Below are positions 5,435 to 64,000 of a stretch of 64,000 bases of DNA, in pieces (within the stretch, counting starts at the first letter, position 1; each line of letters starts with the position of its first letter). A program made the position numbers and the translations under genes. Source of the stretch: Verrucomicrobiaceae bacterium (GTDB lineage Bacteria > Verrucomicrobiota > Verrucomicrobiia > Verrucomicrobiales > Verrucomicrobiaceae); assembly GCA_947507875.1 (NCBI GenBank), contig CANNQP010000003.1, positions 132,299 to 196,298 of the forward strand, given 5' to 3'. The notes below the pieces were generated by a model. That model worked only from the letters and a program-made list of their open reading frames with translations. It was not told the DNA's origin and ran no database searches.

Positions 5435-5448
5435 GGAAGAAGCAGAGT

Positions 5449-41144: not shown

Positions 41145-41162
41145 GGGCTAAAAAATCATGTG

Positions 41163-42059: not shown

Positions 42060-42082
42060 GATCGTGGGGAGGTTCTGGTGGA

Positions 42083-43528: not shown

Positions 43529-43805
43529 GTCAGTGTTCTGGGGTTTGGAGAAAGAAACGGCAAGAGGCTAAACGCGGCCGTGGATAGACAATCCGCCTGA
43601 AAAAACGCATCAAATTCTTTTTCCCTTCTACCTTTGCATTATCCTTTTTCGCAGCGAGGTGCCAGAAACTGTCCGCTCCATGCAACCAATGGATGAACTC
43701 TGCTCGACTGAGGAAAATTTGTTTTGATGACAAGTCCGGCTGACCAAGGTTTTGCCTACCGTTCTATGGATTTGCAGGCATGGCGTTCGTGGATGGTCAC
43801 AACAC

Positions 43806-46466: not shown

Positions 46467-46481
46467 GCGCGGAGGCTTGGA

Positions 46482-47132: not shown

Positions 47133-47138
47133 GCTGAC

Positions 47139-47723: not shown

Positions 47724-47784
47724 GAGGTTATTTTCCCAATTTACCTTCTTTTTTCAAGCATCTTTTGGAAAAAACCTTTGGCGA

Positions 47785-48927
47785 TTAGCCCTGTTGCTGA
47801 ATGTGTCGAGCGCAACTGAGGATCTCCTGGGCCGCGCGGTGGATCTCATCAGGTGTCGTTAGTCGGGACAAGGACAGCCGAAGTGTGCTGGCTGCCGAGG
47901 CAGCATCGCATCCCATCGCCTCCAAAACGTGCGAGGGATGCAACGACGCCGTGTGACAGGCTGAGCCTCCTGAACAGGCAATGCCCCGCTGGTCGAGCCG
48001 GATGAGCATCGCCGCCGCATCGACTCCTGGCAGACAGAGGCTGCACGTGCCAGGCAGGCGCGGGGCCGCAGCACCATGCACCCGAGCCCCAGACCAGCCC
48101 AAGAGCAGGACACTTTCTAGAGCATCTCTCAGGGCCGACATCTGCTTTTCACCACCAGCCGCGAGCCAGTCAGAAGCCATGAAGGCCGCATGCCCCATGC
48201 CGAGAATGCCAGGCACATTTTCTGTGCCACTGCGTCGGCCTGCCTCTTGCCCACCACCGACCAGCAGCGGCCGAAAGGGCACCCTACGATTTACAAAAAG
48301 CGCTCCCACGCCCTGAGGCCCATGCATTTTATGACTGCTAATGCTGAGGTAATCGACAGGCACCGCGCTTACATCCAGGGGCATCTTTCCCGCCACTTGG
48401 ACTGCATCCGCATGCACCAAAACGCCGGCAGCGTGACAGAGCTCCACGACGCGCGCCATCGGCGTTATCACGCCCGTCTCATTGTTGCCCCAAATGAAGG
48501 AGGCAAGCGCCACACGCCCTGCCTTCAACTCAGATTCCAGCACTTCCACATTCAATAAGCCCTGGGCATCGACAGGGATCAGGCGCACCTCTCCGCCCTG
48601 GGCCTGCCAGCGCTCGGCAGCCTCCAAGCCTGCGGCGTGCTCGACTTGGCTCGTGATCAGCACGGGCCGGTCGGTCCATTCCGCTTGGGCAAATGATAGC
48701 ACGGCGTTGATCGCCTCCGTGGCCCCGCTGGTGAACACAATCTCCTCCGGCTGGGCCTGCAAAAGAGCCGCCACCTGCGCCCTGGCCGACTCAACAGCAC
48801 GCCGGGCACGGCGGCCTGCGCTGTGGGCGGAGGAGGGATTCCCGAACCGCTCGCGCATCCAGGGCAGCATGGCCTCGATCACCTCGGGCAGCAGAGGAGT
48901 GGTGGCATTCGCATCCAGATAAATCAT
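47785..48927 (-). CDS. Cysteine desulfurase (NifS/IscS class V aminotransferase)
   Basis: 'MIYLDANATTPLLPEVIEAM...FGNPSSAHSAGR' and 'LSISSHKMHGPQGVGALFV' (the PLP Lys) are seen. ATG 48927 was preferred over the TTG at 48939. Confidence 0.85.
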   Translation of the reverse strand: MIYLDANATTPLLPEVIEAMLPWMRERFGNPSSAHSAGRRARRAVESARAQVAALLQAQPEEIVFTSGATEAINAVLSFAQAEWTDRPVLITSQVEHAAGLEAAERWQAQGGEVRLIPVDAQGLLNVEVLESELKAGRVALASFIWGNNETGVITPMARVVELCHAAGVLVHADAVQVAGKMPLDVSAVPVDYLSISSHKMHGPQGVGALFVNRRVPFRPLLVGGGQEAGRRSGTENVPGILGMGHAAFMASDWLAAGGEKQMSALRDALESVLLLGWSGARVHGAAAPRLPGTCSLCLPGVDAAAMLIRLDQRGIACSGGSACHTASLHPSHVLEAMGCDAASAASTLRLSLSRLTTPDEIHRAAQEILSCARHIQQQG

Positions 48928-49086
48928 GGCACACGACAATAGGGCAGCTTTTTGGAATGATGCATCGGTTTAGCGGCTCCGAGATCGAACGCTGCTTCAA
49001 AAAACCCTCAAATCTCGCCTTTTCCATGGCATGCCCCAATTCTAGCGTTTAGAAAGACGCCCGCCTCGGCGGTCACAAAAGAATCT

Positions 49087-50940
49087 ATGTGCGGCATTGT
49101 AGGTTATATCGGCAAGCGGCAGGCCAGCCCTATCCTCCTGGATGGGCTGAGTCGGCTGGAGTATCGTGGCTATGACTCAGCAGGCATCGCCCTGCTGAAC
49201 GGCGCGCCCCAAGTCAACATCATCAAAAAGGCAGGGCGCATCGACAACCTGCGTCAAGCTGTCGCGGAAGTCAGCCACGCCGGGGCCACTGGGATTGCCC
49301 ACACGCGTTGGGCCACTCACGGTGCGCCCACGGATGAAAACGCCCACCCCCACCGCGATCAAAGCGGCAAGCTGGTGCTCGTCCACAATGGCGTGATCGA
49401 GAACTATCAAAGCCTGAGAGAGCAGCTCACTGCCAAAGGCCATTCCTTTGAATCTCAGACCGATACGGAAGTTTTAGCTCACCTGGTGGGCACCTACTAC
49501 GATGCTAGCGATGAAACCGACGGGGCCACACGCCTGCGCAATGCCGTGCAGAGCGCCCTGCGCAAGGTCAAAGGCACGTATGGCATCGCCGTGCTCCACG
49601 CCGACGTGCCGGGCGTGATCGTCGGGGCACGCCTCGGCAGCCCACTGGTCGTGGGCCTCGGCGAAGGCGAGCACTACCTCGCCTCGGACGTGAGCGCCAT
49701 CGTCGCCCACACGCGTGATGTCGTTTACCTGAACGATCACGATGTCGTCAGCCTGAGCAGCGAGCGTTTTGACGTGACCAGCATGGCCGGCGGCGATGCC
49801 CAGGTGAAAGTCAGCCGTGTGGAATTCACCGCCGATGATGCCGAGAAGGGTGATTTCCCGCATTACATGCTGAAGGAGATCTACGAGCAACCGCAGAGCC
49901 TCCGCAATGCCCTGCGTGGACGACTTTCCCGCGATGAGGCCACCGCGATCCTGGGTGGCCTGAACATGAGCCCACAGGAGCTGCGCGGCATCGACCGCAT
50001 CATCCTCAGTGGCTGCGGCACGGCCTTCCACGCCGCGATGGTTGGCGAGTATGTCATCGAAACCCTCGCGCGCGTGCCGACTGAGGTCGAAATCGCCTCC
50101 GAGTTCCGCTACCGCAACGTCCCTGCTGACAAAAACACGCTCCAATTTGTGCTGAGCCAGAGCGGCGAGACGATCGACACCCTAGCTGCTCTGCGGGAAG
50201 CACGGCGCAAAGGCATCCGCTGCCTCGGCATTGTGAACAGCGTCGGCAGCACCATCGCCCGAGAAAGCGACGGCGGCTGCTACATCCACGCCGGGCCAGA
50301 GATCGGGGTCGCGGCCACCAAGACCTTCACCTCGACGGTCGCCGTGCTCTCCCTGCTCGGCATGCTTTTCGGCCGCATCCACCACCTCAGCAGCGCCGAC
50401 GGCCTGGAGATGATTGACGAGCTCGAAGCCATCCCTGACAAAATCACCTCGATCCTGAAGCAGGCTGACAAGATCAAAGCCATCGCTGAAAAGCACTGCA
50501 ACGCCGAGGGCATGCTCTTCATGGGTCGCCAAGCGAACTACCCTGTCGCCATGGAGGGTGCGCTAAAGATGAAAGAGATCAGCTACATCTACGCCAGCGG
50601 TCACCCCAGTGCCGAGCTAAAGCACGGCATCATCGCCCTCGTGAAACCGGACATGCCCAGCGTGTTCATTGCCCCCGACGACGCTGTCTTCGACAAAAAC
50701 GTCAGCAACATCGAAGAGGTCTTGGCGCGCAAAGGCCCTGTCATCGCCGTCACCACCGAAGGCCGCACCGAGCTCGAACGCCTCACGGAGGACGTCATCT
50801 ACGTGCCGGACAGCCCAAGCTACCTCAGCCCGCTGCTCACCGTCATTCCACTTCAGCTTTTCAGCTACTACACCGCCGTCGCCCGCGGCTGCGATGTCGA
50901 TAAGCCACGCAACCTGGCGAAAAGTGTGACCGTGGAGTGA
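49087..50940 (+). CDS. glmS: Glutamine--fructose-6-phosphate aminotransferase (isomerising)
   Basis: 617 aa. The protein begins 'MCGIVGYIGKRQASPILLDGLSRLEYRGYDSAGIA' and ends '...DKPRNLAKSVTVE', both canonical. Confidence 0.97.
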   Translation: MCGIVGYIGKRQASPILLDGLSRLEYRGYDSAGIALLNGAPQVNIIKKAGRIDNLRQAVAEVSHAGATGIAHTRWATHGAPTDENAHPHRDQSGKLVLVHNGVIENYQSLREQLTAKGHSFESQTDTEVLAHLVGTYYDASDETDGATRLRNAVQSALRKVKGTYGIAVLHADVPGVIVGARLGSPLVVGLGEGEHYLASDVSAIVAHTRDVVYLNDHDVVSLSSERFDVTSMAGGDAQVKVSRVEFTADDAEKGDFPHYMLKEIYEQPQSLRNALRGRLSRDEATAILGGLNMSPQELRGIDRIILSGCGTAFHAAMVGEYVIETLARVPTEVEIASEFRYRNVPADKNTLQFVLSQSGETIDTLAALREARRKGIRCLGIVNSVGSTIARESDGGCYIHAGPEIGVAATKTFTSTVAVLSLLGMLFGRIHHLSSADGLEMIDELEAIPDKITSILKQADKIKAIAEKHCNAEGMLFMGRQANYPVAMEGALKMKEISYIYASGHPSAELKHGIIALVKPDMPSVFIAPDDAVFDKNVSNIEEVLARKGPVIAVTTEGRTELERLTEDVIYVPDSPSYLSPLLTVIPLQLFSYYTAVARGCDVDKPRNLAKSVTVE

Positions 50941-51195
50941 CCTCCCGCTCGACCTCCATGATTTGGCGGGGGACAAAAGCTCGTTCACTGCCGTGTGTCT
51001 TGTCCTGAACGTCCTAGTTCATCGGCACTCTGGACAACGCCGCCGTCAACCTACCGCCTAGCAGTCCAATGCCCAAAGCCTGAGAGGGACAAAATCGCCG
51101 TTTGACTTCCACCACATCTCCCCGGACATATCATCGCATCTTGATACGTTGATTTGTTACTCTTACCCCAAACCTGAACCCACCCACGCCCACCT

Positions 51196-52599
51196 ATGAG
51201 CGACTACAAAGTCAAAGACATCGCCCTAGCCGACTTCGGCCGCAAGGAACTCGACATCGCTGAGAGCGAAATGCCCGGCCTCATGGCCACCCGCGAGAAG
51301 TATGGCCCGAAGAAGCCCCTCGCTGGTGTCCGCATCACCGGCTCCCTCCACATGACCATTCAAACGGGCGTGCTCATCGAGACGCTGAAGGAACTCGGTG
51401 CCGACGTCCGCTGGGCCTCCTGTAACATTTTCTCTACCCAGGACCACGCCGCAGCCGCCATCGCTGCCTCCGGCACACCCGTCTTTGCCTGGAAGGGCGA
51501 AACGCTGGAAGAATACTGGTGGTGCACCTGGCAGGCCATCATGTTCCCCGGCAACAAAGGCCCACAGCTCATCGTCGATGACGGCGGCGACGTGACCCTT
51601 CTCATCCACAAGGGCTATGAAATGGAAAACGGCGACAAGTGGGTCGAGACCCCCTCCGACAACCACGAAGTGAAAGTCATCAAGGACCTGCTCAAGGACA
51701 TCGCCAAGAAGCAGCCCGGCATCTTCCACGAGATCGTCAAGGAGCTGAAGGGCGTCTCCGAAGAGACCACCACCGGCGTGCATCGCCTCTATGAAATGGC
51801 GAAGGCTGGCAAGCTGCTCTTCCCCGCCATCAACGTGAACGACAGCGTCACGAAGTCCAAGTTCGACAACCTTTACGGCTGCCGCGAATCCCTGCTCGAC
51901 GGCATCAAGCGTGCCACCGACGTCATGATCGCCGGCAAAGTCGGCGTTGTCTGCGGCTACGGTGACGTGGGTAAAGGCTGCGCCTTCGCCCTCCGCGGCA
52001 TGGGTGCCCAGGTCATCGTGACCGAAATCGACCCCGTGTGCGCCCTTCAGGCCGCCATGGAAGGCTTCCGCGTCATGCCCATCGAGGATACCCTTGGCTG
52101 GGGCGACATCTACGTCACCACCACCGGCAACAAGGACATCATCCGCCTGGAGCACATGGAAAAGATGAAGGACCAGGCCATCGTCTGCAACATCGGCCAT
52201 TTCGACAACGAGATCCAAGTCGATAAGCTCAACGAGCGCCAAGACGTCAAGCGCCTCAACATCAAGCCGCAGGTGGACAAATACACCTTCCCGGCCGGCA
52301 ACAGCATCTTCATGCTCGCCGAAGGCCGCCTCGTGAACCTCGGCTGCGCCACCGGCCACCCGAGCTTCGTGATGAGCAACAGCTTCACCAACCAGTGCCT
52401 CGCACAGATCGACCTCTGGGAAAACAAGGACAATCGCCCCATTGGCGTCACGGTCCTGCCGAAGAAGCTCGATGAAGAAGTCGCCCGCCTCCACCTTGCG
52501 AAGATCGGCGTCAAGCTCACCGTCCTCACCAAAGACCAGGCCGACTACATTGGCGTGCCTGTCGATGGCCCCTACAAGACGGATCACTACCGTTACTAA
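51196..52599 (+). CDS. ahcY: Adenosylhomocysteinase
   Basis: 467 aa. Motifs are '[27 protein letters not shown]', '[12 protein letters not shown]' and the terminal 'YKTDHYRY'. Confidence 0.97.
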
Positions 52600-52670
52600 T
52601 GAGCCATCACTCTCCGAGTGATGAGCCCTCCCCCAAGCGCGTCCGGTCGAAAGGCCGGGCGCGTTTTTTT
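52581..52670 (+). repeat. Direct-repeat copy A: the last codons of ahcY, a 7-bp hairpin (52606-52622) and the terminator
   Basis: This segment aligns by eye at roughly 90% identity with 61274-61364. A further 20-nt piece, 52452-52471 'ggtcctgccgaagaagctcg', matches 61254-61273 'gatcctgccgaagaagctcg'. Confidence 0.85.
52637..52670 (+). terminator. Rho-independent terminator of ahcY
   Basis: The stem 'cgcgtccggtc' / 'ggccgggcgcg' has 11 bp including two G-U pairs, with a GAAA loop, followed by TTTTTTT. Confidence 0.75.
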
Positions 52671-52723
52671 GACCCCATTCCAACAACCGCCATACGCCAT
52701 CATGGTGCACGTGATGAGCCCCC

Positions 52724-54226
52724 TCACTCCTTCTGCCGTGCCTCCACCGGCCGCCACTCCACCTGCTCAAAACGCGTCGAACTCATATAACTCCCCAGCC
52801 CCAGGGCCATCGGGCGGGGATTGGGTCCCAGTTCCCAAACCGGCGTGATGCTCATCGGCAGACCCCGGGTCACAAAGGTCTTTTTCAATACCCCATCGAC
52901 ACTCACCCGAACTTCGTCGGGCCGCACCTCGACGAACAGTTCATGCGGCTCGCCATTCACCAGGGGAAACCGAAATCCATAGCCGGACCTGAGGTCCTGC
53001 CCGTTGATCAGTTGCACCCCGGCGAGCCCTTCTTTCCAGGCGTCCAGTTCCACACTCGCCATGCGTCCGCTGCTGCGGAAGAACAACGCCATCGAATACT
53101 GCCCCGTCAGCCGCGTCAGGCGCAGCCGCACGTCGTAGGACTCCGGCAGTTCGTCCTCCAGCTTCACCACACAGATGTTCGGGCCGGACGTCAGCATCCC
53201 GTTCTCACTGCGCCAGTCGCCGCTCAGCACATCCTCCCAAATGCGCGTGCCCGCCGCGGCATCCCGCCATTCCCCAGGCACCTCGGCTGCCGCGGGACTC
53301 TCCGGCCAAAGCGCCACGCCGCTGCCCAGCAAAACCAAGGCTCCCATCAGCCAGGGCCACCAGCGGCGCGGCCGCGGCACCTCCAGGGCTCTCATGAACT
53401 CGGCCACGGTGGCAAACCGCTCCGCGGGCTCCGGCCGCAGCGCACGCATCACCGCCGCTCCCAGCGGCTCCGGGATCTCCTTCCTGACCCGATGAGGGGC
53501 GTCAAAACTGCCGCGCGGTGTCCGACCGGTCAGCAACTCATACGCCATCACGCCCAGCGCGAAGACATCCAGCCGCGCGTCCGCCTCCGCGCCCCGAAAC
53601 TGCTCCGGCGCCATGTAGTCCACGGTCCCCACCACAGTGCCGCTCAGCGTCAATCTCGTGCTGGCCTCATGCAGCGGCAGGGCGAGCCCAAAGTCCGTCA
53701 CACGCGCCGTGCCTGCGGCATCCAGGAGCACATTCTCCGGCTTCATGTCGCGATGAATCACCCCGCTGGCATGCGCCGCCTCCAGACCGGCCGCAATCTC
53801 CCGCAGGATTCGCAGCGCTTCCGCCACCGGCAGTCCGTTCGGATGCTGCCGCAGCTTTTCCCGCAGACTGCCTCCCTCCACAAACTCCATCACAATCGCT
53901 GCTCCGTCGTCAGTGCGCTGAAAATCATGCACCGCCACGATGTTCGGATGCCGCAGCCGCGCCATCACCCGTGCCTCGCGCTCCAGGCGCTCCAGGAACT
54001 GCGGGTCCTCCGCCAGCTCACTCGCCAGCACCTTCACCGCCACCTCGCGATCCAGGCTGACCTGTCGGCCCAGATACACCGCGCCCATGCCGCCGCGTCC
54101 GATCGGCGTTTCGATCTCAATCCCCACGACTTCGATGGAACGGCCCTCCCCGGTCAGCCCCTGCGCCATCAAAGCCTCCGGCTGCAAACCGGAGAGGCGT
54201 CGGCGAGGGAAGCGTGAGTCGGACAT
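52724..54226 (-). CDS. Ser/Thr protein kinase with a TM segment and an extracytoplasmic concanavalin/LamG-like domain
   Basis: Kinase motifs are 'GRGGMGAVYLGRQ...VAVKVL', 'HRDMKPENVLL', 'DFGLA' and 'APE'. 'WWPWLMGALVLLGSGVALW' is a TM segment. The C-terminal ~190 aa look like a beta-rich domain. Confidence 0.9.
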   Translation of the reverse strand: MSDSRFPRRRLSGLQPEALMAQGLTGEGRSIEVVGIEIETPIGRGGMGAVYLGRQVSLDREVAVKVLASELAEDPQFLERLEREARVMARLRHPNIVAVHDFQRTDDGAAIVMEFVEGGSLREKLRQHPNGLPVAEALRILREIAAGLEAAHASGVIHRDMKPENVLLDAAGTARVTDFGLALPLHEASTRLTLSGTVVGTVDYMAPEQFRGAEADARLDVFALGVMAYELLTGRTPRGSFDAPHRVRKEIPEPLGAAVMRALRPEPAERFATVAEFMRALEVPRPRRWWPWLMGALVLLGSGVALWPESPAAAEVPGEWRDAAAGTRIWEDVLSGDWRSENGMLTSGPNICVVKLEDELPESYDVRLRLTRLTGQYSMALFFRSSGRMASVELDAWKEGLAGVQLINGQDLRSGYGFRFPLVNGEPHELFVEVRPDEVRVSVDGVLKKTFVTRGLPMSITPVWELGPNPRPMALGLGSYMSSTRFEQVEWRPVEARQKE

Positions 54227-54283
54227 GGCGTCGCGGAGTGACGGATGACGAAACCCATCCTATAGCCCAACTCCACCCCGTCA

Positions 54284-55006
54284 TCAAACACCACTCAGCA
54301 CCCGCAGCAGGTAGCTCATCTCCTCGTCCACGTTCGCCCCAGCCGGCTGGGTTTCGGCGATCTCCCGGCGCAGGGCTTCGCGAAAACGCGCCCGCAGACG
54401 GTGAACGGCCACTTTGAACGTGTTGGCGCTCATGCCCGCCTCGCGACCCGCTTTTTCATACTCGGTGGCATCGCCTTCACCGGTCAAAAAGGGGCGCAGC
54501 AGGGCAAACTCAGCGCCTTTGCCTCTCGATTCGGCTTGCTGCTCCAGCTTGGCCAAAGTGAGGTCGAGCACGGTGAGCGCCCACTGGCGGTCGAAAAGAT
54601 GGTCCGCGCTTTCACCCTCGATCTGCTCGACCTCATACCACGCCTCGGCCTCGGCGGCGTCAAAGCTCACGACCTGGCCTCCCCCGCGCTTTTGCCGGTT
54701 CTCTTTGCGCTGCTCGTCATGCACATGCCGCCGAAAGGCGATGAGCATGAAGGTGCGTAGTTTGCCCAGCTCCGGGTTCGCCGCCGCAAACAGCTGCTTC
54801 TGCAGCACCTGGATAAAGAAGCCCTGCACGTAGTCTTCTGCGTCACTGGGCGAGGCTCCGCAGCGGCGGCTCCAGGCATACAGCGGGAACCAATACGCCG
54901 CGCACAGCTCCTCCAGCGCCCTATGTGCCGTCTCCCCCTGCCCCTGCGACTGGATCACCAGGCTCCAGCGGGTCGGTTGAAAAGCTGCGGGGACCATTTC
55001 TTGCAT
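54284..55006 (-). CDS. ECF-type RNA polymerase sigma-70 family factor
   Basis: The region 2 part reads 'TRWSLV...ALEELCAAYWFPLYAWSRRCGASPSDAEDYVQGFF' and the region 4 HTH part reads 'YEKAGREAGMSANTFKVAVHRLRARFREAL'. The start was set to ATG 55006. The track's longer form (to 55234) would run antisense into the divergent giant gene. Confidence 0.85.
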   Translation of the reverse strand: MQEMVPAAFQPTRWSLVIQSQGQGETAHRALEELCAAYWFPLYAWSRRCGASPSDAEDYVQGFFIQVLQKQLFAAANPELGKLRTFMLIAFRRHVHDEQRKENRQKRGGGQVVSFDAAEAEAWYEVEQIEGESADHLFDRQWALTVLDLTLAKLEQQAESRGKGAEFALLRPFLTGEGDATEYEKAGREAGMSANTFKVAVHRLRARFREALRREIAETQPAGANVDEEMSYLLRVLSGV

Positions 55007-55067
55007 GGACGAGTTTTTTTTCGGATCACTGTAACCCACTCCGCTGAATGACCAACAGACACCTGTC
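55007..55067. promoter_or_regulatory. 61-bp divergent intergenic region between the ECF sigma gene and the giant secreted-protein gene
   Basis: Both genes start here in opposite directions. The region contains a T9 run (55014-55022) and 'tgtaacc' (55031-55037). Promoter elements were not assigned with confidence. Confidence 0.35.
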
Positions 55068-58000
55068 ATGTCTGCATTTTTCCTTCGAACCGCCCTTCTC
55101 GGACTCGCCCTCGCGGCGACCGCTCCGCTCCTGGCCCAGGTGCCGGCAGTGACGCCGGCGTTTCCCACGAATGTCACCGGCACCCCCGGCACCCTCCTGT
55201 TTCGCCAGATCGGGCTGAGCCGTGTGACCAACATCGCCTACCACAACGGCTTCATTTACACCCACGAGGTCGCCTCGGCCAATCCCCGGCGCTGGCGCTT
55301 CACCACTCCCTCAAACCCGGCCTCGCTGACCATCGAAGCCACCGGACAGAACATCGTCGGCAACTTCTCCGATCACGGCACCCACGGGCATTACAAGGTC
55401 GGCGACTGGCTGGGCGGACAGTTTGCGGTCAACATCCGCCGCAACCCGGGTGCCGTGAACCAAAACCTGCTGCAGGCCATGCCCGGCTTCAACTACTACA
55501 CCGCCACGCAGCCCGGCGACGGACTCACGCGCATGTACTACCCCTGGGGACTCGCCTTCAACTGGATCGAATACGGCGCGGTCACCGGCTACGGCTACCT
55601 CTACCGCGGCACCGAAGCCAACGGGCAGCCGCTGGCTCAATGGCCGGTGCTGGCCCAGGACGGGGTGGCGGGAAACTCCATCCTCCTCGGCAACCTGCTC
55701 TTCATCACCAGCGATGAGTCCAACATGGGCATCCTCTGCTACGACATCTCGCCGGTCTTTCAGACGCCCGCCCAGCCCCCGGTGCTGCTGGACAAGCTCT
55801 CAGGCCCCGTGGGTGCCTACATCGTCTCGCCGTGGCAGAATTACCTCCTGCTCTCCCGGCGCGACACCAACACCCTCGACATCATCGACTACAGCGACCC
55901 GGCAAACCTGCGCTTCGTCACCTCCATCAACACACTCGGCAATCCAGCGCGCGACCGCGGCAACGGGCTCGGCTACATCCAGTGCCAGGACCACTTCGTC
56001 TTTGCCGACCGGCACAAGATCAACATGGAGACGTTTCAAACCGTGCTGGAACTCGACGAAATGGATGCCGGGGGTCGTCCAGCGGGCAGTGTCAGCGGCC
56101 AACTGGACACCAGTCAGCATCTCATGCCCCTGGGAAACCTGCTCATCAGCGGCGGCTACAGCGTGGCGGGAGCGGATGGTGTGGGCGTGTGGATCCATGA
56201 CGCCCAGCCGGACACGCGGGCGCCCTACGTCGGTTATCACATCCCACGTCCCGGGCAGACCCATTTCCCGCGCGGCGCGCCCATCAGCCTCCTCATTCAC
56301 GAGAACCTCGAGTCCTACACGATCATCAATGGCACCACGGTGACCCTGCGCCGGGCGGATCAAATGACACCGCTGAACTGCATCGTGAGCTTCTCCTATG
56401 ACGACGTGCTCACCATCACGCCGGTGAGCTATCTGGAGGAAAACCAGACCTACGTCGTGGAAATCGCTCCCGGGGGCATCAAGGACGCCTGTGGAAACGG
56501 CATCGTGGGCTACTCGTTCAGCTTCTCCACGGGCGGCAGTGTCGCGGGAGGCAATGCGGCTCCGCAGATCACCAGTTTCGCCGCCTCGCCATCCCCAGCC
56601 CCACCCGGCAGCGAGCTGACCTTCACCGCTGCGGCCACGGATGCGGGTGCAGGGGATGTGCTGGAGTATCGCTTCACCTTCGGCGACGCAGGCGGCGTGC
56701 GCGAGTGGAGCACCGACCCCACCGCGACGCACGCCTATGCCGCTTCGGGGCACTACGGCGTGAAGGTGCAGGTGCGTGACGTGCGCACCGGCACACCGCT
56801 CTCCACGGTCTCGCAGACCGGCACCGTGACCATCGCAGCCGCTCCCCCGCCGGTCCAGCCCACGAAATCATCACCCATCGCGATTCATCCTGTCACGCGC
56901 CGAGTGTGGGTGGTGAATCCTGACAATGACAGCGTCACCCGCATCAATGCCGACTCTCTCCAGGTCCTCGGAGAGCATGACTTGAACGCGCTGCTCGGCA
57001 TCACAGGCAGCATCGATCCGCGCAACGTCGCCGTTGACCCGCTCGGCAACGCCTGGGTCACCTGCCGCGACGCGGATCGTGTGGCGATCTTGAGCACCGA
57101 AGGCACCCTGGTGCAGAGCCTCGCCCTGCCCCATGGCAGCGCGCCGATGGGCGTGGCCATCACACCGGATGGCTCGACCGCGTTCGTCACGCTGGAGGGG
57201 CGCGGTCAGCTCCTCCGCTTCAACACCGCCACCCGGACGCAGACCGGTTCGCTTTCGTCCCTCGCCACGCCACGCGCCATCGCGATCACCGCGAACGGTT
57301 CGCGCGTGCTCGTCACGCGCTTCATTTCAGGCGAGGAGTTTGGCCAGGTCTATGATGTGAACGCCGCCACCCTGGCGCTCACCCGGACCATCCCGCTGCA
57401 TCGCGACCGCGGCCGCGATGGCAGCTCCTCCGGTCGTGGCGTGCCCAACTACGTCTCCAGCATCACCATCTCCCCCGATGGTCTGTTCGCCTACTTCACC
57501 GCCGTGAAGTCCAACACCCATCGCGGTCTGTTCTTCAACCAGACCGACAACACCAACGACCCGCTCGACCCCGACAACACCATCCGCGCGCTCGTCGGTC
57601 TCATCAACTTGAGCACGCATCAGGAACCGCTGATGACCGACATCAACACCTACCGCATCGACGTCGATAACAGCGAGTCCCCTACCAGCATCGAGTTCAC
57701 GCCCTCCGGCGACTACTTCTTCGTCAGCGTGCAGGGAAACAACCATGTCGCGGTTTTTGACAACCTGCTGCTGCGGCAGTTTCCCACCACGCTCAGCACC
57801 AAAACCACCAAGGGCCGCTTCGCCACCGGACTCGCCCCCCAGGGACTGGCATTCGATCCGGCCACCAATCGCCTTCTTTCCGCCGACTTCATGGGGCGCA
57901 GTGTCACAGCGCATCATCTCGGCGGCTTCCTCAGCTTCGGCAGCCGCAACACGAACCGCGTCGCCATCCCGACGATCACCACCGACAAGCTCCCGCCGCA

Positions 58001-60872
58001 GGTGCTTCATGGCAAACGCCTCTTCTACCAGGCGGCGGATGCGAGCGGGCTCTCCACCCTGCCCACCATGAGCCTCGAAGGCTACATTTCCTGCGCCAGC
58101 TGCCATGTTGATGGCCAGCACGATGGCATGACCTGGGACTTCACCCAGCGCGGCGAGGGCATGCGCAACACCACCGACCTCCGCGGTCGCGGCGGCGTGG
58201 CGCATGGCAATGTGCACTGGTCCGCGAACTTTGATGAAATCCAGGACTTCATCCTCGACATCGTGAATGAGTTCGGCGGCAGCGAGGCCCTGCTGCCTCC
58301 TGGTGAGGCGCCCCATCCCCCGCTCGGCGCGCCGAATGCGGGTCGCAACGCCCATCTCGACGCCCTCGCCGCGTATGTCGCCTCGCTGGGTCAGGAGCAT
58401 CTGCCGCGCAGCCCGCATCGCGCCACCAACGGCACGCGCACTTCCTCCGCAGATGGCGGCGAGATGCTCTTCGTTTCGCAAAATTGCATCAGCTGCCATG
58501 GCGGCGCGCGCTTCACTGACAGCACGCTGGGTGCCGGACTTCTTCATGACGTAGGCACGCGGCGCACCAGCAGCGGACAGCGCCTTGGCGCCACCCTGAG
58601 CGGTCTCGACACACCCACACTGCTCGGCCTGTGGGCCAGCGCACCCTATTTTCACGATGGCAGCGCGAAGACGCTCGATGAGGTCTTCCGCGTGGCGGGC
58701 GGCATTGTTTATCAGGCGGAGGATGCCGTGCTCAGCGCGGGGGTTTACCAGCCTGGCTATCCCCGTCTCAATGAGGACAGCAGCATGCACGGTCAGATGG
58801 TTTATCTGAACCAGGGGGAAACGGTGACCTTCCCCGCGGTGAACGGCGGCACCACGAGCGGCCTGGGCGACATCGAACTGCGCTGGGCCGCTCCGTTCTG
58901 GGCCACCGGCGGCACGGCGAGCGTCACTGTCAATGGCCAGCTGTTTCAGGTGAATGTCACGCGTCCCTTCGGCATCGGGCAGCCCGGAGACCACTGGCAG
59001 CGCCTGCGCATCGAAAACGTTCCCCTCACAGCGGGCGCGACCAACACCCTTGTCGTGACCACCTCCACGCTTCAAGATTCCGGCTTCGATCAGCTCCTCG
59101 TGACCACCCCTGACGACCTTCAGGCCGCCTACGCGCACCGCCGCGTACTGGCCTTGACCCCAACGGAGCAGAACCAGCTGCGTGACTACCTGCTGCAGCT
59201 CGATGGCGGAAGCGCCGCGCCACCCACCAATCCGAGCGTGGCACTCACGCTCGCTCCCGGTCAGGCCGCCAGCGGGTCCCGGCCGTTTGCGGAGTTCGAC
59301 GTCATCTTCTCCGAGCCGGTCTCGGGTCTCACCGTTGGCGATTTCCTTCACAGCGGCTCCGCGGCCAGCCTCACCACGATCTCGGAAGGCACGCAGTATC
59401 GCCTTCGCATCGCCGGCTACGCCGCTGGCAATGTCACGGCGCAACTGCCCGCGGACGCCGCCTCGGCCTTGGACGACAGCACCGGTAACTTCGCCTCCAA
59501 CCTGGTGGCCTTCACTTACGCGCCGAATGTGCCGGATGACATTGCGCCGCTGTCTGACGAGTTTGGTAGCGTTGGCACGCTGAGCCAGTGGCAGCGGAAT
59601 TACATCGTCGAAGGCTGGGGCTCCGCAGCGAACAAGCTCGAAACCTGGGACATCAACACCTCGCGCAGCGGTCACATGCGTCTCATGCCGGTGCCCTGCA
59701 CCTGGTTCAACCACCGCACCGGCCCGCTCGCCTTCAAAACCGTGACCGGCGACTTCATCGCCACCATCCAGCTCGATGTGCGGCGGCGCGGCGGCCTGCC
59801 CGGGCGTCCCCAAAGTGACTTCACCTGGGGTGGCCTGCTCATCCGCGCGCCACGGACGCTCACCCAAAGCTCGCCGATCCCTGATCCCGGACCGAACGTC
59901 GTTCTGCCCTGGCCTCCCAACGGCAGCTACACCACGCAGTGGAACTTCACGCCGGAGAACTACATCTACCTCGCCAGCGGCTTCGCCACCAACGCCACTG
60001 GCGCCAACCCGAACCTCTGGCATTACGAGTCGAAGATCACCACCAACAGCAACTCTATCTTCTACAGCGGCACCACCGGAGTGCCCTTGAATGAAAGCGT
60101 CTCCTCGCTCCAGATCGTGCGCATCGGCCAGACCAGCCTGCTGCTCCGCCGCCACGGCAATGGTCCTTGGATCATTCAAGAGCGCTACACCACCAGCAAC
60201 CTCCCCGCCACCGTGCAGGTCGGTCTCACCGCCTACACCAACTGGTTTCACATCGCCAGTTTGCACGAGTTTCATCACAACCACACCGCCGCCACTGGTG
60301 GCAATCCCGACATCATCGCCGACGTCGATTACTTCCGTCTGCGCCGTCCACCCGCTGGCCTCACCGAGTCCGCTTTGCAAAACGCCACCCCCACCGGTCA
60401 GTTCGGAACGTCGGTCCTGCTGAGCAATTCCGCCCTCGCTAGCACGCTGGGCGATCCTGCCAACACGGCCTACACCCCTCCCGGCCAGACCTTTGACGAG
60501 TGGCTCACCGCGAACCTCACCCCCCTGCAACTCGTGCAGGCACCCCTGACTGCCCCAGACGCCGACACCAACGGCAACGGGATTCAAAACCTGATGGAGT
60601 TCATCACTCCGCAGCCACTCGCCCTGGAACTCTCTGGCGGCAGCGCTATCCTCACGCTCAATCGCAACAGCGCCGCTCGTGGCGTCACGCTCATCATCGA
60701 ATACAGCGAGGACCTCCTCACCTGGACACCCATTGCGACATCAGTGAACGGAGATCCCCCCACTGGAACCGCGACCATCCAGGAAGCGGGCGGCACGCTG
60801 CGCACGGTGATCATCCAGCATGCCTCACCGTCCAACCGCACCTTTTACCGTGCTCGCGCCGTGAGACCGTAA
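55068..60872 (+). CDS. Giant secreted multidomain protein (1,934 aa). Domain order: LVIVD-like repeats, Ig-like, PKD, YVTN beta-propeller, di-haem cytochrome c peroxidase/MauG-like, CBM/Ig-like, LamG-like, C-terminal tail
   Basis: The signal peptide is 'MSAFFLRTALLGLALAATAPLLAQ'. 'LDIIDYSDPANLRFV' is LVIVD-like. The PKD region reads 'LTFTAAATDAGAGDVLEYRFTFGDAGG...HAYAASGHYGVKVQVRD'. The YVTN repeats read 'PRNVAVDPLGNAWV...PMGVAITPDGSTAFV...PRAIAITANGSRVLV'. The haem motifs are CASCH (nt 58092-58106) and CISCH (nt 58485-58499), with 'TPTLLGLWASAPYFHDGSAKTLDEVF'. The tail reads 'DADTNGNGIQNLMEF...RTFYRARAVRP'. Confidence 0.85.
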   Translation: MSAFFLRTALLGLALAATAPLLAQVPAVTPAFPTNVTGTPGTLLFRQIGLSRVTNIAYHNGFIYTHEVASANPRRWRFTTPSNPASLTIEATGQNIVGNFSDHGTHGHYKVGDWLGGQFAVNIRRNPGAVNQNLLQAMPGFNYYTATQPGDGLTRMYYPWGLAFNWIEYGAVTGYGYLYRGTEANGQPLAQWPVLAQDGVAGNSILLGNLLFITSDESNMGILCYDISPVFQTPAQPPVLLDKLSGPVGAYIVSPWQNYLLLSRRDTNTLDIIDYSDPANLRFVTSINTLGNPARDRGNGLGYIQCQDHFVFADRHKINMETFQTVLELDEMDAGGRPAGSVSGQLDTSQHLMPLGNLLISGGYSVAGADGVGVWIHDAQPDTRAPYVGYHIPRPGQTHFPRGAPISLLIHENLESYTIINGTTVTLRRADQMTPLNCIVSFSYDDVLTITPVSYLEENQTYVVEIAPGGIKDACGNGIVGYSFSFSTGGSVAGGNAAPQITSFAASPSPAPPGSELTFTAAATDAGAGDVLEYRFTFGDAGGVREWSTDPTATHAYAASGHYGVKVQVRDVRTGTPLSTVSQTGTVTIAAAPPPVQPTKSSPIAIHPVTRRVWVVNPDNDSVTRINADSLQVLGEHDLNALLGITGSIDPRNVAVDPLGNAWVTCRDADRVAILSTEGTLVQSLALPHGSAPMGVAITPDGSTAFVTLEGRGQLLRFNTATRTQTGSLSSLATPRAIAITANGSRVLVTRFISGEEFGQVYDVNAATLALTRTIPLHRDRGRDGSSSGRGVPNYVSSITISPDGLFAYFTAVKSNTHRGLFFNQTDNTNDPLDPDNTIRALVGLINLSTHQEPLMTDINTYRIDVDNSESPTSIEFTPSGDYFFVSVQGNNHVAVFDNLLLRQFPTTLSTKTTKGRFATGLAPQGLAFDPATNRLLSADFMGRSVTAHHLGGFLSFGSRNTNRVAIPTITTDKLPPQVLHGKRLFYQAADASGLSTLPTMSLEGYISCASCHVDGQHDGMTWDFTQRGEGMRNTTDLRGRGGVAHGNVHWSANFDEIQDFILDIVNEFGGSEALLPPGEAPHPPLGAPNAGRNAHLDALAAYVASLGQEHLPRSPHRATNGTRTSSADGGEMLFVSQNCISCHGGARFTDSTLGAGLLHDVGTRRTSSGQRLGATLSGLDTPTLLGLWASAPYFHDGSAKTLDEVFRVAGGIVYQAEDAVLSAGVYQPGYPRLNEDSSMHGQMVYLNQGETVTFPAVNGGTTSGLGDIELRWAAPFWATGGTASVTVNGQLFQVNVTRPFGIGQPGDHWQRLRIENVPLTAGATNTLVVTTSTLQDSGFDQLLVTTPDDLQAAYAHRRVLALTPTEQNQLRDYLLQLDGGSAAPPTNPSVALTLAPGQAASGSRPFAEFDVIFSEPVSGLTVGDFLHSGSAASLTTISEGTQYRLRIAGYAAGNVTAQLPADAASALDDSTGNFASNLVAFTYAPNVPDDIAPLSDEFGSVGTLSQWQRNYIVEGWGSAANKLETWDINTSRSGHMRLMPVPCTWFNHRTGPLAFKTVTGDFIATIQLDVRRRGGLPGRPQSDFTWGGLLIRAPRTLTQSSPIPDPGPNVVLPWPPNGSYTTQWNFTPENYIYLASGFATNATGANPNLWHYESKITTNSNSIFYSGTTGVPLNESVSSLQIVRIGQTSLLLRRHGNGPWIIQERYTTSNLPATVQVGLTAYTNWFHIASLHEFHHNHTAATGGNPDIIADVDYFRLRRPPAGLTESALQNATPTGQFGTSVLLSNSALASTLGDPANTAYTPPGQTFDEWLTANLTPLQLVQAPLTAPDADTNGNGIQNLMEFITPQPLALELSGGSAILTLNRNSAARGVTLIIEYSEDLLTWTPIATSVNGDPPTGTATIQEAGGTLRTVIIQHASPSNRTFYRARAVRP

Positions 60873-61253
60873 GGGAGCACTGGCCTTTCCTTGCCGCAGC
60901 AAGCGTGATGCGAGCACACTCGCTACTGCGGAGGTTAGCCCAGAATGGACGCAGATCGCAGGGCTATTAGCACCATTCGTTGGGGTTGGCTACGCCACCT
61001 TCCTTACCGACTCGCTGGACACCCGTTTCAAAGTGGCTGCGTCTTTCTCTGTGAGGAGGCGTCGTCATCAAAGCCCCATGTGGACAAATTGGCCCCCGAG
61101 CCCTGGAGCCAAGGTGCAGGGATCTTCGAAGGCATGCGCCCCAAACGGCTGATATGCCAGGGCTGGATCACATTCATGCTGTGCGCTTGAGAGGCACTGA
61201 ACGACAGGCTAGCATACCCATTAACTGATGCCCTGCGGCAGTAAGCACCACCT

Positions 61254-61368
61254 CGATCCTGCCGAAGAAGCTCGGATCACTACCGTGACGAATGAGCCAT
61301 CACTCTCCGAGTGATAGGCCCAGCCCCAAATCGCGTCCGGTCGAAAGGCCGGGCGCGTTTTGCTTTTC
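61254..61368 (+). pseudogene. Relic of the ahcY 3' end plus a copy of its terminator (direct-repeat copy B)
   Basis: 61254-61273 matches ahcY 52452-52471. 61274 onward matches 52581-52670, so about 109 nt of ahcY are missing in between. The hairpin 'atcactctccgagtgat' and the stem-loop 'cgcgtccggtcgaaaggccgggcgcg' are both retained, followed by 'ttttgcttttc'. Confidence 0.8.
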
Positions 61369-61621
61369 GGGCAAGCCTTGCCAACCCAAGCGAGGGCGCA
61401 TGGGACAGAACTGCAACCACGCCACCACTCAAACGCCCCTCATCAAGGGTTCATGACAAAATGAAAGAAGGAGGAGAACCTTCACAGAATCGTTGCTTTC
61501 ATCCATCCCCGTCGAAGATTCCTCTCTCGTGGATTGAGCTTTGCATCTACCGAACTAGAGAGACTCCCGTTGGGGACTCGCCCTCTCTTTTCGCCTTCAT
61601 TTTCTACCCATAGAATCTCTC

Positions 61622-62599
61622 ATGACCTCAGGTTGGATCGCGCTGCTGGATGACCTCGCCACGCTTACGAAGGTGGCGGCCTCTTCACTTGATGACGCTG
61701 CTGGCCAGGCAGCCAAAGCAGGGAGTAAAGCGGCGGGCATCGTCATTGATGACGCGGCCGTCACCCCCCGTTACGTGGTCGGTCTCAGCGCGGATCGTGA
61801 ACTGCCGATCATTGCCAAAATCGCCGTCGGCTCGTTGAAAAACAAGATGCTCCTGCTCCTTCCAGGAGCGCTGCTGCTGAGCTTTTTCGCACCCTGGGCC
61901 ATCACGCCGCTGCTCATGGCGGGCGGCGCTTTCCTCTGCCTGGAAGGTTACCACAAGGTCATGGACCTCGTGCGCCCCGGTCATGGCGATCACGCCGAGG
62001 CGACCCCCGGCGCGCAATCGGCGGAAGAGCTGGAAAAACAGCGCGTGAGCAGTGCCATCCGCACCGATTTCATCCTCTCGGCTGAGATCATGGCCATCAC
62101 CCTTGCCTCCGTCGCCACCTCTCCGGTCTGGCTTCAAGCGGCCGTGCTGGGGGTCGTCGGCGCAGGCATGACGCTGCTCGTTTATGGCGCCGTGGCGGTG
62201 ATCGTCAAAGCAGACGATGCTGGAGTCGCCCTTGCTCGACAGTCCCATGGCATCCTTCGGGCACTCGGACGTGGCATCGTGCTTGGCATGCCCGTGTTTT
62301 TGAAGGGGCTCAGCCTGATTGGCATGGTGGCCATGCTCTGGGTCGGAGGTGGTATTCTCATTCACGGCCTACATGAACTCGGTATGCACGGCCCCGAAGA
62401 AGCCGTTCATCACGCCGCCGAATTGGTGGCAGGCATCATCCCCACCGTGAGGGCCTTCCTCACCTGGCTTGTCGGCGCCGGCATCTCCGGTGTGCTAGGC
62501 GTCATCGTCGGTGCCTTGGTCGATCCGCTCGCCAACCACGTTTTGATCCCCGCGTTCCAGGTGCTGAAGAAGCGCTTGGGACGCAAGTCGGCAGCCTGA
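61622..62599 (+). CDS. DUF808 (YedI-like) inner-membrane protein
   Basis: 325 aa. 'LLDDLATLTKVAASSLDD...AAGIVIDDAAVTPRYVVGLSADRELPIIAKIAVGSLKNKMLLLLPGALLLS' matches the conserved DUF808 N-terminus. Confidence 0.8.
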   Translation: MTSGWIALLDDLATLTKVAASSLDDAAGQAAKAGSKAAGIVIDDAAVTPRYVVGLSADRELPIIAKIAVGSLKNKMLLLLPGALLLSFFAPWAITPLLMAGGAFLCLEGYHKVMDLVRPGHGDHAEATPGAQSAEELEKQRVSSAIRTDFILSAEIMAITLASVATSPVWLQAAVLGVVGAGMTLLVYGAVAVIVKADDAGVALARQSHGILRALGRGIVLGMPVFLKGLSLIGMVAMLWVGGGILIHGLHELGMHGPEEAVHHAAELVAGIIPTVRAFLTWLVGAGISGVLGVIVGALVDPLANHVLIPAFQVLKKRLGRKSAA

Positions 62600-62649
62600 C
62601 GATTCCACCGCGAGAGGTGGGATAACCGCAGAAAAAAGCTGTTAAAATC

Positions 62650-63018
62650 ATGAAACCCACCCAAAACCGATTTCAAATCTGGGCACTTATCGCCATCTCA
62701 GGCTGGCTTGCGGTTTGGGTTCCTTGGATGCTTGCGGGTGCTGTCAGAAACATGATTGATGGCATGAAGCCTATCTCCTTTCTGCTTCTTGGACTCCTCG
62801 GGCTGTTCGCTCGGATGCATCTACCGTTGAGGTCATGGCAGGTGGCCGCAGCCTCCGTCACGGCCTTTCCCATCTGGGCTTTGGTGGATGCTGCCTTGCA
62901 CCCAGACACTCACAATCTGCTCGGGCTCGAAATCATCCTGTACGGCTTCTTTGGAATCCCGCCCTTGGTGGGTGCCGTGATCGGAAAATGGATCGAAAAG
63001 GGTCACTCCACCTCGTGA
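62650..63018 (+). CDS. Small hypothetical membrane protein (about 4 TM segments)
   Basis: 122 aa with four hydrophobic stretches. I recognised no motif. Confidence 0.45.
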   Translation: MKPTQNRFQIWALIAISGWLAVWVPWMLAGAVRNMIDGMKPISFLLLGLLGLFARMHLPLRSWQVAAASVTAFPIWALVDAALHPDTHNLLGLEIILYGFFGIPPLVGAVIGKWIEKGHSTS

Positions 63019-63034
63019 TTGAACCCGATAGGCG

Positions 63035-63052
63035 CCCCTCACCCGTGAGGGG
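63035..63052. terminator. Hairpin between convergent genes (possible bidirectional terminator)
   Basis: 'cccctca cccg tgagggg' forms a 7-bp GC-rich stem with a 4-nt loop. No clear U-tract follows on either side. Confidence 0.35.
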
Positions 63053-63085
63053 ATCATGGCATACCTACGAGTGGTTGCTTTAGCC

Positions 63086-64000
63086 TCATTGCACCCGTGC
63101 TCTCGCCACGGCTTTTTGAAATGCCTCACGCACCGGACTGGCATCGCTGTTGGGGAAATTCGCGCGCTGTACGATCAGCACGTAAATGACGTCCTTCTTC
63201 GGGTCAATCCACGCCTGCGTGCCCCACGCGCCGCCGTGGCCGAAGGTGCCGGGCGAGAGCATTTCCGCGAGACCTTCATGCGGCTGCTTCAAGACACACG
63301 CGCCGATGCCCCAGCCGTAGTTCGCGCCGTGATTGCCGAACTCTGCTCGCTGGAAGAAGCCACACGGCAGATCCCCTGTATGCACGGAGGACAGCGTTTG
63401 CACCGCCTCGGCACTGAGGAGGCGTTTCCCATCCAGGGTGCCGCCATTGAGCAACATGCGGCAGAAGCGCGTGTAGTCCTTCGCGCAGGAATACAGGCCA
63501 CCGTTGCCCTGCGGCGGACGCCCGCGCTTGCCAAAGTCACCACGTGGCGGCACAGGATCGAGTTTGCCCGTCTCTTTGTTCTTCGCGTACCCGGTGACCA
63601 CCTGCGCCCACTGCGCATCGGTGGGATAAAAAGTCGTGTTCGTCATGCCGAGCGGGTCAAAGAGACGCTTCTGCAAGAATTCGTCAAAGGTCATGCCGCT
63701 GATCACCTCCACGATGCGCGATGCCGTGTTGATGCCGGACTGGCAGTATTGCCACCGAGAACCTGGCTCAAACTGCATCGGCGTCGCCAGCCAGATCGGC
63801 ACCAGATCGGCGAGCGTGTGCGCTTCATCTGCCTTTGGCCCCTTTGCTTCGCCGAGCCCCGACGTGTGCGTGAGCACCTGAGTGATCGTGAGATTCGCCA
63901 GCTTGCCGGAAGGCGTCTTCAATGCGGCGAATTCAGGGATGAACTTCGAGACCGGGTCCGCGATGTTCAGCTTCCCCTCATCCTGAAGCATCAGGATCGC
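63086..64000 (-). CDS. Beta-lactamase-family serine hydrolase (class C / PBP-like), C-terminal part; the gene leaves the right edge of the window
   Basis: Motifs are 'ILMLQDEGKLNIADPVSKFIPEF', 'VLTHTSGL', 'GGLYSCAKDYTRFCRMLLNGG' and 'FGHGGAWGTQAWIDPKKDVIYVLIVQR'. The reading frame stays open upstream of the track's Met at 63991, up to nt 64000. Confidence 0.8.
   Translation of the reverse strand, partial: AILMLQDEGKLNIADPVSKFIPEFAALKTPSGKLANLTITQVLTHTSGLGEAKGPKADEAHTLADLVPIWLATPMQFEPGSRWQYCQSGINTASRIVEVISGMTFDEFLQKRLFDPLGMTNTTFYPTDAQWAQVVTGYAKNKETGKLDPVPPRGDFGKRGRPPQGNGGLYSCAKDYTRFCRMLLNGGTLDGKRLLSAEAVQTLSSVHTGDLPCGFFQRAEFGNHGANYGWGIGACVLKQPHEGLAEMLSPGTFGHGGAWGTQAWIDPKKDVIYVLIVQRANFPNSDASPVREAFQKAVARARVQ

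Follow-up and report, generated by a model that had tools for sequence, protein, structure and literature searches.

A strain-variable, recombinase-less islet inside the ahcY terminator of a freshwater Verrucomicrobiaceae bacterium

How can a bacterium gain or lose a complete sensory module at one exact chromosomal position without a mobile-element enzyme? The question is raised by a block of genes directly downstream of ahcY, the gene for S-adenosyl-L-homocysteine hydrolase, in a 64,000-nt stretch of DNA (hereafter the window) from Verrucomicrobiaceae bacterium (GCA_947507875.1, contig CANNQP010000003.1, positions 132,299-196,298 of the forward strand). Comparison of AhcY-based loci places the window in the Verrucomicrobiaceae, among Prosthecobacter/Brevifollis-like freshwater metagenome-assembled genomes (MAGs). 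The block encodes a Ser/Thr protein kinase, a putative sigma factor of the extracytoplasmic function (ECF) type and a giant secreted protein. The initial annotation, made from the letters of the window, had taken it to be bracketed by direct repeats of the ahcY 3' end and had read the arrangement as the scar of an insertion there. A precise empty site in conspecific strains supports this scar. We are highly confident that the block is a strain-variable accessory islet of 8,694 bp, present or absent at one exact site inside the terminator of the housekeeping gene ahcY, between ahcY and a DUF808 gene. One clone carries the islet, and most other strains of the species are without it.

Empty and occupied forms of the site were called from Logan contigs of public lake and river metagenomes, mapped on the window. 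In two runs (X9 and X12), one contig joins position 52637 to position 61332, skipping 8,694 bp, and 30 letters at the joint fit both sides; in both, depth is zero over the block and about 9x over the flanks. Block depth is zero in X8 and X18 as well, with flanks at 7-20x across the four runs. In five further runs (X10, X14, X15, X17 and X20), the contig bearing the left-hand repeat, copy A, runs past 52667 into GCTTTTCGGGCAAGCC, the sequence to the right of the right-hand repeat, copy B. Contigs of the same species in which ahcY and copy A run directly into the right side of copy B come from at least seven lake or river metagenomes. Moreover, a 13-kb JGI/NCBI contig encodes an identical AhcY, followed by a 328-nt spacer and then by DUF808. 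This spacer is the sum of 38 nt from the left of the shared core at copy A (A-left), the 30-nt core itself and 260 nt from the right of the core at copy B (B-right), as expected for an empty site. A related species (locus L012) is also empty: glmS, ahcY, the terminator and DUF808 follow in order, and the sequence to the right of its terminator aligns with the window to the right of copy B, not to the right of copy A. The proposed search for relatives in which ahcY and its terminator stand directly before the DUF808 gene was thus positive in conspecific strains, in the JGI contig and in L012. In empty-site strains the DUF808 gene is the right-hand neighbour of ahcY, and the identical AhcY protein is encoded on occupied and empty-site contigs alike. 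A DUF808-based scan of metagenome contigs returned only other species (at most 88% identity), none with the block.

The empty-site allele also locates the crossover. To the left of the core it is identical to copy A, with no mismatch over 52348-52637; therefore, the crossover interval is the 30-bp terminator core at 52638-52667, 3' of the stop codon, and not the interior of ahcY, and the element supplies no functional ahcY 3' end. The block had been likened to islands that regenerate the gene end into which they integrate, which is not the case here, since the empty-site allele is identical to copy A and the junction lies downstream of the stop. The part of the right-hand repeat region to the left of the core (B-left, 61254-61331) is seen only together with the block; empty-site contigs carry the copy-A version, and no empty-site strain has both repeat copies. 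In the occupied runs X1-X4, block depth equals that of the flanks. The occupied form was also assembled independently in different samples: five such loci, with L001-L004 aligned, agree with the window at 99.99-100%.

No recombinase, integrase or transposase domain was found in any block gene by Pfam and NCBIfam scans, and no recombinase lies within 10 kb on either side in the precomputed Pfam annotation of public contigs identical to the window. The block was rejected as a transposon or insertion sequence: it has no transposase, there are no terminal inverted repeats among the inverted pairs found, and the duplication is about 110 nt long and imperfect. A Tn7-type insertion at glmS was rejected as well; the terminator of glmS, a gene 1.7 kb upstream, is not where the insertion lies, and there are no Tns genes.

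The repeats themselves bear out all that had been read from them by eye (Table 1). The end of ahcY, a 7-bp hairpin and the GAAA-loop terminator had been reported to recur with about 7 mismatches and 1 indel, and alignment of copies A and B gives 7 mismatches and 1 gap over 89 columns (91% identity). The 20-nt ahcY piece noticed to the left of copy B, with about 109 nt missing, corresponds to a match at 20 of 21 positions between 61254-61274 and ahcY 52451-52471; the two ahcY pieces of copy B abut, which amounts to a 109-nt deletion relative to ahcY. The altered stop context was confirmed too, the ahcY stop TAA (52597-52599) being GAA in copy B, with TGA next, and the degenerate extra copy of the hairpin flank that had been pointed out near copy A was recovered at the left edge of the islet (20/26 identity). 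This third copy contains the exact 11-mer GTGATGAGCCC and folds weakly (z = -1.8), while the fold of copies A and B is one and the same, with two hairpins (z-scores -5.9 and -4.5). Folding also showed the 30-bp core to be an imperfect palindrome. A 23-nt hairpin segment and a 31-nt terminator segment each occur exactly twice in the window, where dinucleotide shuffles expect 0.00, and the repeat matched no Rfam family. Further to the left of copy B, a weak ahcY-like match of 24 nt (61066-61089, to ahcY 52260-52282, the KPQVDK codons) is collinear with the other relic pieces; its score of 31 is marginally above chance (shuffle maximum 29; maximum for other window segments 26). The sequence between the ahcY-like fragments to the right of the giant gene showed no homology to ahcY on alignment. 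With the exception of that one weak match, 60873-61253 was rejected as a longer decayed ahcY pseudogene, as global alignments between the anchors and upstream of them were no better than shuffles and tblastn was empty. For the non-coding edges of the block, namely this 381-nt stretch and the left edge, no homologue turned up among 170 loci or elsewhere in the window.

The two forms of the site differ in diversity. The occupied lineage is nearly clonal: the 90% cluster of the giant protein is one sequence, recorded identically on 9 contigs, and X4 shows about 7 single-nucleotide polymorphisms (SNPs) over 8.7 kb. The empty-site strains come from more studies and have several flank haplotypes, and within the 1.3 kb to the right, seven differences from the window are fixed among them. 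Their divergence from the window is 0.3-1.2% at 48.5-51.3 kb, about 0.2% in ahcY, 0/290 in A-left and 0.5-0.7% in the right flank, and 0.3-1.9% in the flanks elsewhere. A clonal occupied lineage, diverse empty lineages and an empty outgroup (L012) make a gain in the occupied lineage the more parsimonious history. Between A-left and B-left there is about 9-12% divergence in addition to the 109-nt deletion. B-left is too diverged to have formed since such a gain, and thus most likely arrived with the block.

Is ahcY a peculiar place for such an event? About twenty species have the same GAAA-loop terminator after ahcY, preceded by a CCCCCAAAACCCCAAA-like tract, with compensatory changes in the stem across species. 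It is found even where the downstream genes differ, so the terminator is ahcY's own. Only the window's species has the hairpin between the ahcY stop and the terminator. In a second group of species, ahcY is followed by a different terminator (GGCGGCCAGCAATGGCCGCTCTTTTTTT), and neither type matches an Rfam family. In many Verrucomicrobiaceae species (window 52600-52670; L011-L032), the ahcY 3' untranslated region has a conserved build of one or two variable hairpins, the CCCCCAAAACCCCAAA-like tract and the GAAA-tetraloop terminator. ahcY is a good homology anchor, because its nucleotide conservation is far above that of its neighbours: it is 93% identical to L012, versus 82% for the flanks.

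Seventy-four related loci were scanned for recurrence, each against its own ahcY end, and all loci were also compared with AhcY. Two further cases were found, and the only relics are 3'-terminal. At L044 (1645-2950), ahcY and its terminator are followed by a toxin-antitoxin pair of the DUF3368 (PIN-like)/UPF0175 kind and then by a second ahcY end (2690-2842): the final ~150 nt of the gene, complete with stop codon, hairpins that look native, and a terminator. The two L044 copies differ at 16/150 nt but at only 2 amino acids; as the differences are mostly synonymous, both copies evolved within functional genes. At L035 (3008-3600), an insert of about 0.4 kb with a 69-aa open reading frame (ORF) precedes a relic of residues 428-464 (3446-3556) that carries the other terminator type. 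AhcY residues 417, ~419 and 428 mark the starts of the three relics, the one in the window included. Within the first two positions after ahcY, RES-domain toxins were found in 6 of 65 species loci, and Xre/MbcA/ParS antitoxins and TIR_2 proteins in 4 each; no integrase is among the recurrent families. The site seems to collect toxin-antitoxin and defence-like genes. The downstream side of ahcY is thus a recurrent site of gene gain in the Verrucomicrobiaceae, which is the most noteworthy feature of the locus.

A separate observation concerns gene order. Of the species returned by the DUF808-based scan, L093 is the only one with ahcY nearby. In this related species (3608-10000), ahcY and DUF808 lie 6.4 kb apart with a single copy of the terminator, and the intervening genes are housekeeping-like (HhH protein, NIPSNAP, bestrophin, carbonic anhydrase and a xylose-isomerase-like protein). 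The adjacency of ahcY and DUF808 is therefore not universal.

By what route could the islet have entered? The explanation that we consider the best, and hold with confidence slightly above even, is that it was inserted in the terminator core by way of a relic that it carried itself. The incoming DNA would already have borne an old relic of an ahcY 3' end, hairpin and terminator from an earlier residence beside an ahcY gene, and would have entered by host homologous recombination through this relic and the resident terminator. A circular copy could have integrated by a single Campbell-type crossover within the 30 identical bp; alternatively, a donor with the whole structure already in place could have contributed the block by a double crossover in the flanks. 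The block would be precisely deleted again if the two repeats recombined. The relic would probably go back to an earlier ahcY-anchored insertion in which about 110-150 nt of an ahcY 3' end were duplicated or displaced, L044 and L035 showing a fresher form. Taken jointly, that the mechanism was independent of a recombinase and that the change was a gain are about evenly poised, and the polarity rests on parsimony rather than on a genome phylogeny.

This last point weighs against entry through an islet-borne relic, and several others do so too. No donor genome was found. A back-joint of a circular form was not seen in the Logan contigs, which as contigs leave rare forms invisible. With 30 bp of perfect identity, the core is at the lower limit of what RecA-dependent recombination needs. 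Three relics that start within 12 codons in three species could mean a site-specific enzyme with a defined attachment (att) site. The closest relative of the cargo (L171/L172; 83% protein and 79% nucleotide identity, over 52745-60864 only) lies between FAD-oxidoreductase and BNR/RraA genes, outside any ahcY context, and no flanking repeats were found around the cassette in L171/L172. Composition does not settle a foreign origin either. The proposed composition and codon-usage check showed the block to be GC-richer than the rest of the window (64.2% versus 59.0%) and mildly atypical in codon usage; however, its GC content at third codon positions (GC3) is inside the range of the window genes, and the cassette in L171 likewise exceeds its flanks in GC. 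With so mild a signal, composition is not decisive, and it was set aside as proof of foreign origin.

Other explanations were weighed against the same evidence. If the repeat were a common intergenic or terminator element, or an artefact of assembly, it would be uninformative on insertion; a GAAA-loop terminator is indeed kept after ahcY in many species, and de Bruijn contigs break at the 30-bp core in some runs. This reading has next to no probability left, being already refuted by the dispersal search and by spanning contigs. Within four metagenomes, the hairpin and terminator occur only at the two known places where the site is occupied and once where it is empty, and the hairpin 23-mer has zero matches in 241 million JGI metagenome records, so that the repeat search outside the locus finds no dispersal of the kind that the initial annotation had named as a refutation. 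Furthermore, single contigs in X1 and X3 span both copies at even depth, and copy B also holds ahcY coding sequence. It is unlikely that the block is a degenerate or non-autonomous integrative element whose repeats are attL and attR and whose recombinase is encoded elsewhere or has been lost, even though direct repeats from a conserved gene 3' end together with a precise empty site are the classical architecture of such elements. The relics of the window, L044 and L035 all begin at AhcY 417-428, as if an att arm were inherited, the L044 copies are diverged in nucleotides but hardly in protein, as expected if an element-borne gene end were kept functional, and the core is palindromic, if imperfectly. 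Yet recombinases are missing from the block, from the 10 kb around it and from the families that recur among the first two genes 3' of ahcY in 65 species loci; the crossover is at the terminator core, not at the 5' boundary of the relic, and the gene end is not supplied by the element, the empty-site allele being copy A. The overlap regions of tyrosine recombinases are usually longer than 4 nt, and the loop of the palindrome, at 4 nt, falls below them. The cargo of L044 and L035, moreover, is only 0.4-1 kb.

The polarity could also be reversed, which we regard as rather unlikely. Ahead of the present strains, ahcY-anchored foreign DNA would have entered the ancestor of the species by homology-facilitated illegitimate recombination, the original 3' end would have been displaced and have decayed into B-left, and the empty sites would be secondary, precise core-core deletions or imports of such an allele. 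Long decay in place fits the divergence of A-left from B-left, the 109-nt deletion and the mutated stop, and a core-core deletion would give exactly A-left, core and B-right, as seen. L044 and L035 resemble younger cases of 3'-end displacement, the L035 relic having the terminator type of another lineage, and analogous displacement arrays are known from type VI secretion system (T6SS) effector-immunity and Rhs loci (PMC5361080). On the other hand, the outgroup L012 is empty and has no relic, and the empty-site strains outnumber the clonal occupied lineage and exceed it in diversity; one set of flank SNPs separates all of them from it, so that they are not recent derivatives. All empty sites have one junction in common, and no cargo variant of 90-99% identity exists among 5.8 billion proteins, which would be unexpected for an old species-wide islet. 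A broader conjecture, which we consider improbable, is that the ahcY 3' end and terminator serve the Verrucomicrobiaceae as a dedicated docking site for recombinase-less cassettes, each with an arm of about 110-150 nt starting at codons 417-428 and moving between lineages through ahcY homology or a trans-acting enzyme that recognises the terminator hairpin. If so, the window, L044 and L035 would be examples of such docking, each with its own cargo.

What does the islet carry? The content between the repeats is as first described, namely a kinase, an ECF sigma factor, a gene of 1,934 codons and about 380 nt of non-coding sequence, with no integrase or transposase, except that the sigma assignment is weak. 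The kinase has one transmembrane-like segment (~286-307) and a C-terminal domain of about 190 aa by hydropathy analysis. The putative sigma factor scores E 2e-8 with TIGR02937, below the family cut-off, and E ~7e-4 with PF07638/PF04542; its homologues at the same position show weak PF07638, and a comparison with PDB sequences gave no informative match. The giant protein combines Big_5 and PKD domains with a beta-propeller and a MauG/CCP-like di-haem region in which the CxxCH motif occurs twice (1009 and 1140), and it has a signal peptide. Kinase, sigma factor and giant protein form a trio that is kept in other genomic contexts of relatives at no more than 79% nucleotide identity. The orthologues of the giant protein are full-length (57-83% identity), and kinase and sigma factor adjoin the gene in every context examined (P0002-P0004). 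The adjacency is kept in four contexts; the kinase match of the islet is clear, and its sigma matches are below cut-offs. By analogy with known modules, the membrane-anchored kinase would presumably control the adjacent ECF-type factor by phosphorylation, and the phosphorylated factor would drive the divergently transcribed gene for the giant di-haem protein. The cargo is probably a self-contained signalling module, working as a kinase-controlled ECF module like the kinase-linked ECF groups.

Table 1. Features of the ahcY-DUF808 region, in window coordinates
Feature	Position	Strand	Basis or remark
glmS	49087-50940		5' neighbour of ahcY, 1.7 kb upstream of the insertion
ahcY (S-adenosyl-L-homocysteine hydrolase), intact, 467 aa	51196-52599	+	Pfam AdoHcyase E 1e-151
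ahcY segment, codons ~419-425 (VLPKKL)	52451-52471	+	Recurs at left end of copy B
Repeat copy A: last 17 coding nt of ahcY, TAA stop (52597-52599), hairpin, C-rich spacer, terminator	52580-52667	+	
Copy A hairpin, ATCACTCTCCGAGTGAT	52606-52622	+	
Copy A GAAA-loop terminator, stem-loop and T run	Stem-loop 52637-52663	+	
30-bp core, CGCGTCCGGTCGAAAGGCCGGGCGCGTTTT, identical in both copies; left boundary and crossover interval	52638-52667	+	Empty-site contigs
DNA specific to the occupied form; with one 30-bp core, the 8,694-bp insertion	52668-61331		Depth in metagenome runs
Degenerate third copy of hairpin and flanks (GCCATCA...GTGATGAGCCC), left islet edge	52696-52721	+	20/26 identity to 52603-52628
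Hanks-type Ser/Thr protein kinase, 500 aa	52724-54226	-	Pfam Pkinase E 5e-51; NCBIfam
Putative ECF-type sigma-70 family factor, 240 aa per public assemblies	54284-55006	-	Weak support
Giant secreted protein, 1,934 aa	55068-60872	+	Pfam, NCBIfam, sequence analysis
381 nt without recognisable gene	60873-61253		81-aa ORF at 60945-61190 matches no family
B-left: decayed ahcY 3' relic (21 nt, 109-nt deletion, 17 nt), stop changed to GAA, hairpin, diverged spacer	61254-61331	+	
Repeat copy B	61273-61361	+	Matches copy A 52580-52667
B-left hairpin	61299-61315	+	
B-type spacer, diverged from copy A spacer: GTGATAGGCCCAGCCCCAAAT	Within B-left		
30-bp core of copy B; terminator upstream of DUF808 gene, ancestral position	61332-61361	+	
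DUF808 membrane protein gene	61622-62599	+	Pfam DUF808 E 2e-114

Elsewhere in the window, an SNF2 helicase gene and an aminotransferase gene enclose a RES-domain gene (46482-47132) and a 194-aa gene (47139-47723). The empty-site JGI contig has two small plus-strand genes (111 and 96 aa) in place of the 194-aa gene, which makes 46482-47723 a second strain-variable spot. The divergence of the empty-site runs X9 and X12 from the window is uneven across 44065-49325, 48477-51300 and 61332-64000: it reaches 1.8% at 44-49 kb, over the SNF2-helicase/RES region, with 0.3-1.2% nearby, which suggests recombination tracts. The stretch 40001-44000 has 52% GC, versus 59-60% elsewhere, and holds three minus-strand genes, including one of the MotA/ExbB family; this, too, may be an acquired segment. 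Breaks in public MAG and Logan contigs tend to fall inside ahcY or at the 30-bp core (L054 ends at the equivalent of 52431, and L007-L009 start at 61332), likely owing to k-mers common to many co-occurring species, which is a practical caveat for binning around ahcY.

Taken together, the locus offers a clean natural case in which an uncultured freshwater bacterium gains or loses a complete sensory module without a mobile-element enzyme, with both alleles visible in public lake and river metagenomes and the breakpoint resolved to a 30-bp terminator core. Gene gain downstream of ahcY is useful to bear in mind in pangenome annotation and in judging contig breaks of MAGs at ahcY, and the ahcY terminator is a possible neutral integration site should a Prosthecobacter strain be engineered.

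Compared with known systems, the locus is a fairly ordinary recombinase-less genomic islet and reveals no new kind of system. Like integrative islands and integrative and conjugative elements (ICEs) at the 3' ends of tRNA, tmRNA and protein genes, it has direct repeats from a conserved gene end, a conspecific empty site and accessory cargo, with a functional gene copy on the left and a truncated relic on the right. Unlike them, it has no integrase in or near the block, the crossover lies in the terminator past the stop, and the 3' end is not supplied by the element; the relic travels with the islet and is not a displaced chromosomal end, and the repeats are 91% identical, with a 109-nt deletion. 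Cis-mobilisable elements (CIMEs), a concept from the literature on ICESt1 and ICESt3, are recombinase-less derivatives of integrative elements. The islet resembles these in being a segment with att-like repeats at its bounds, located at a housekeeping gene's 3' end, and in having no genes for recombination or transfer, but differs in that no cognate autonomous element was found at the ahcY site among the first two downstream genes of ~65 related loci.

Homology-facilitated illegitimate recombination has been discussed for 3'-end displacement arrays at T6SS effector-immunity and Rhs loci (PMC5361080). As in those arrays, a conserved upstream gene is the anchor, new DNA lies downstream and an orphan 3' fragment stands to the right, as found in the window (B-left), L044 and L035; there is no dedicated recombinase, and the arrangement recurs at the same gene in all three. 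Unlike the anchors of those arrays, ahcY is a metabolic housekeeping gene and not a polymorphic toxin gene. In addition, since the functional 3' end in the window is the empty-site allele, a simple displacement of the resident end does not account for the orphan. A donor-derived functional 3' end is thus not seen in the window, where copy A is the empty-site allele, whereas the mostly synonymous differences at L044 are compatible with one there. The islet is also similar to the additive flexible islands of aquatic bacteria such as Alteromonas (PMC4898812, PMC3698932) in being a cassette present or absent at strain level, at a fixed spot and visible in metagenomes. Such islands usually lie beside tRNA genes and often have integrases, whereas the present site is the terminator of a protein gene and holds a single cassette.

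For the cargo, kinase-linked ECF groups without anti-sigma factors have been described (PMC7826278, PMC13147305). Its sigma assignment, below family cut-offs, sets it apart from the kinase-associated modules ECF43, ECF59-62 and ECF217/267/283 (PMC7826278) and PknS/EcfK (PMC13147305). It resembles them in these respects: a Hanks-type kinase adjoins an ECF-like sigma factor, there is no anti-sigma gene, a putative target gene is divergently oriented, and the trio is kept across contexts.

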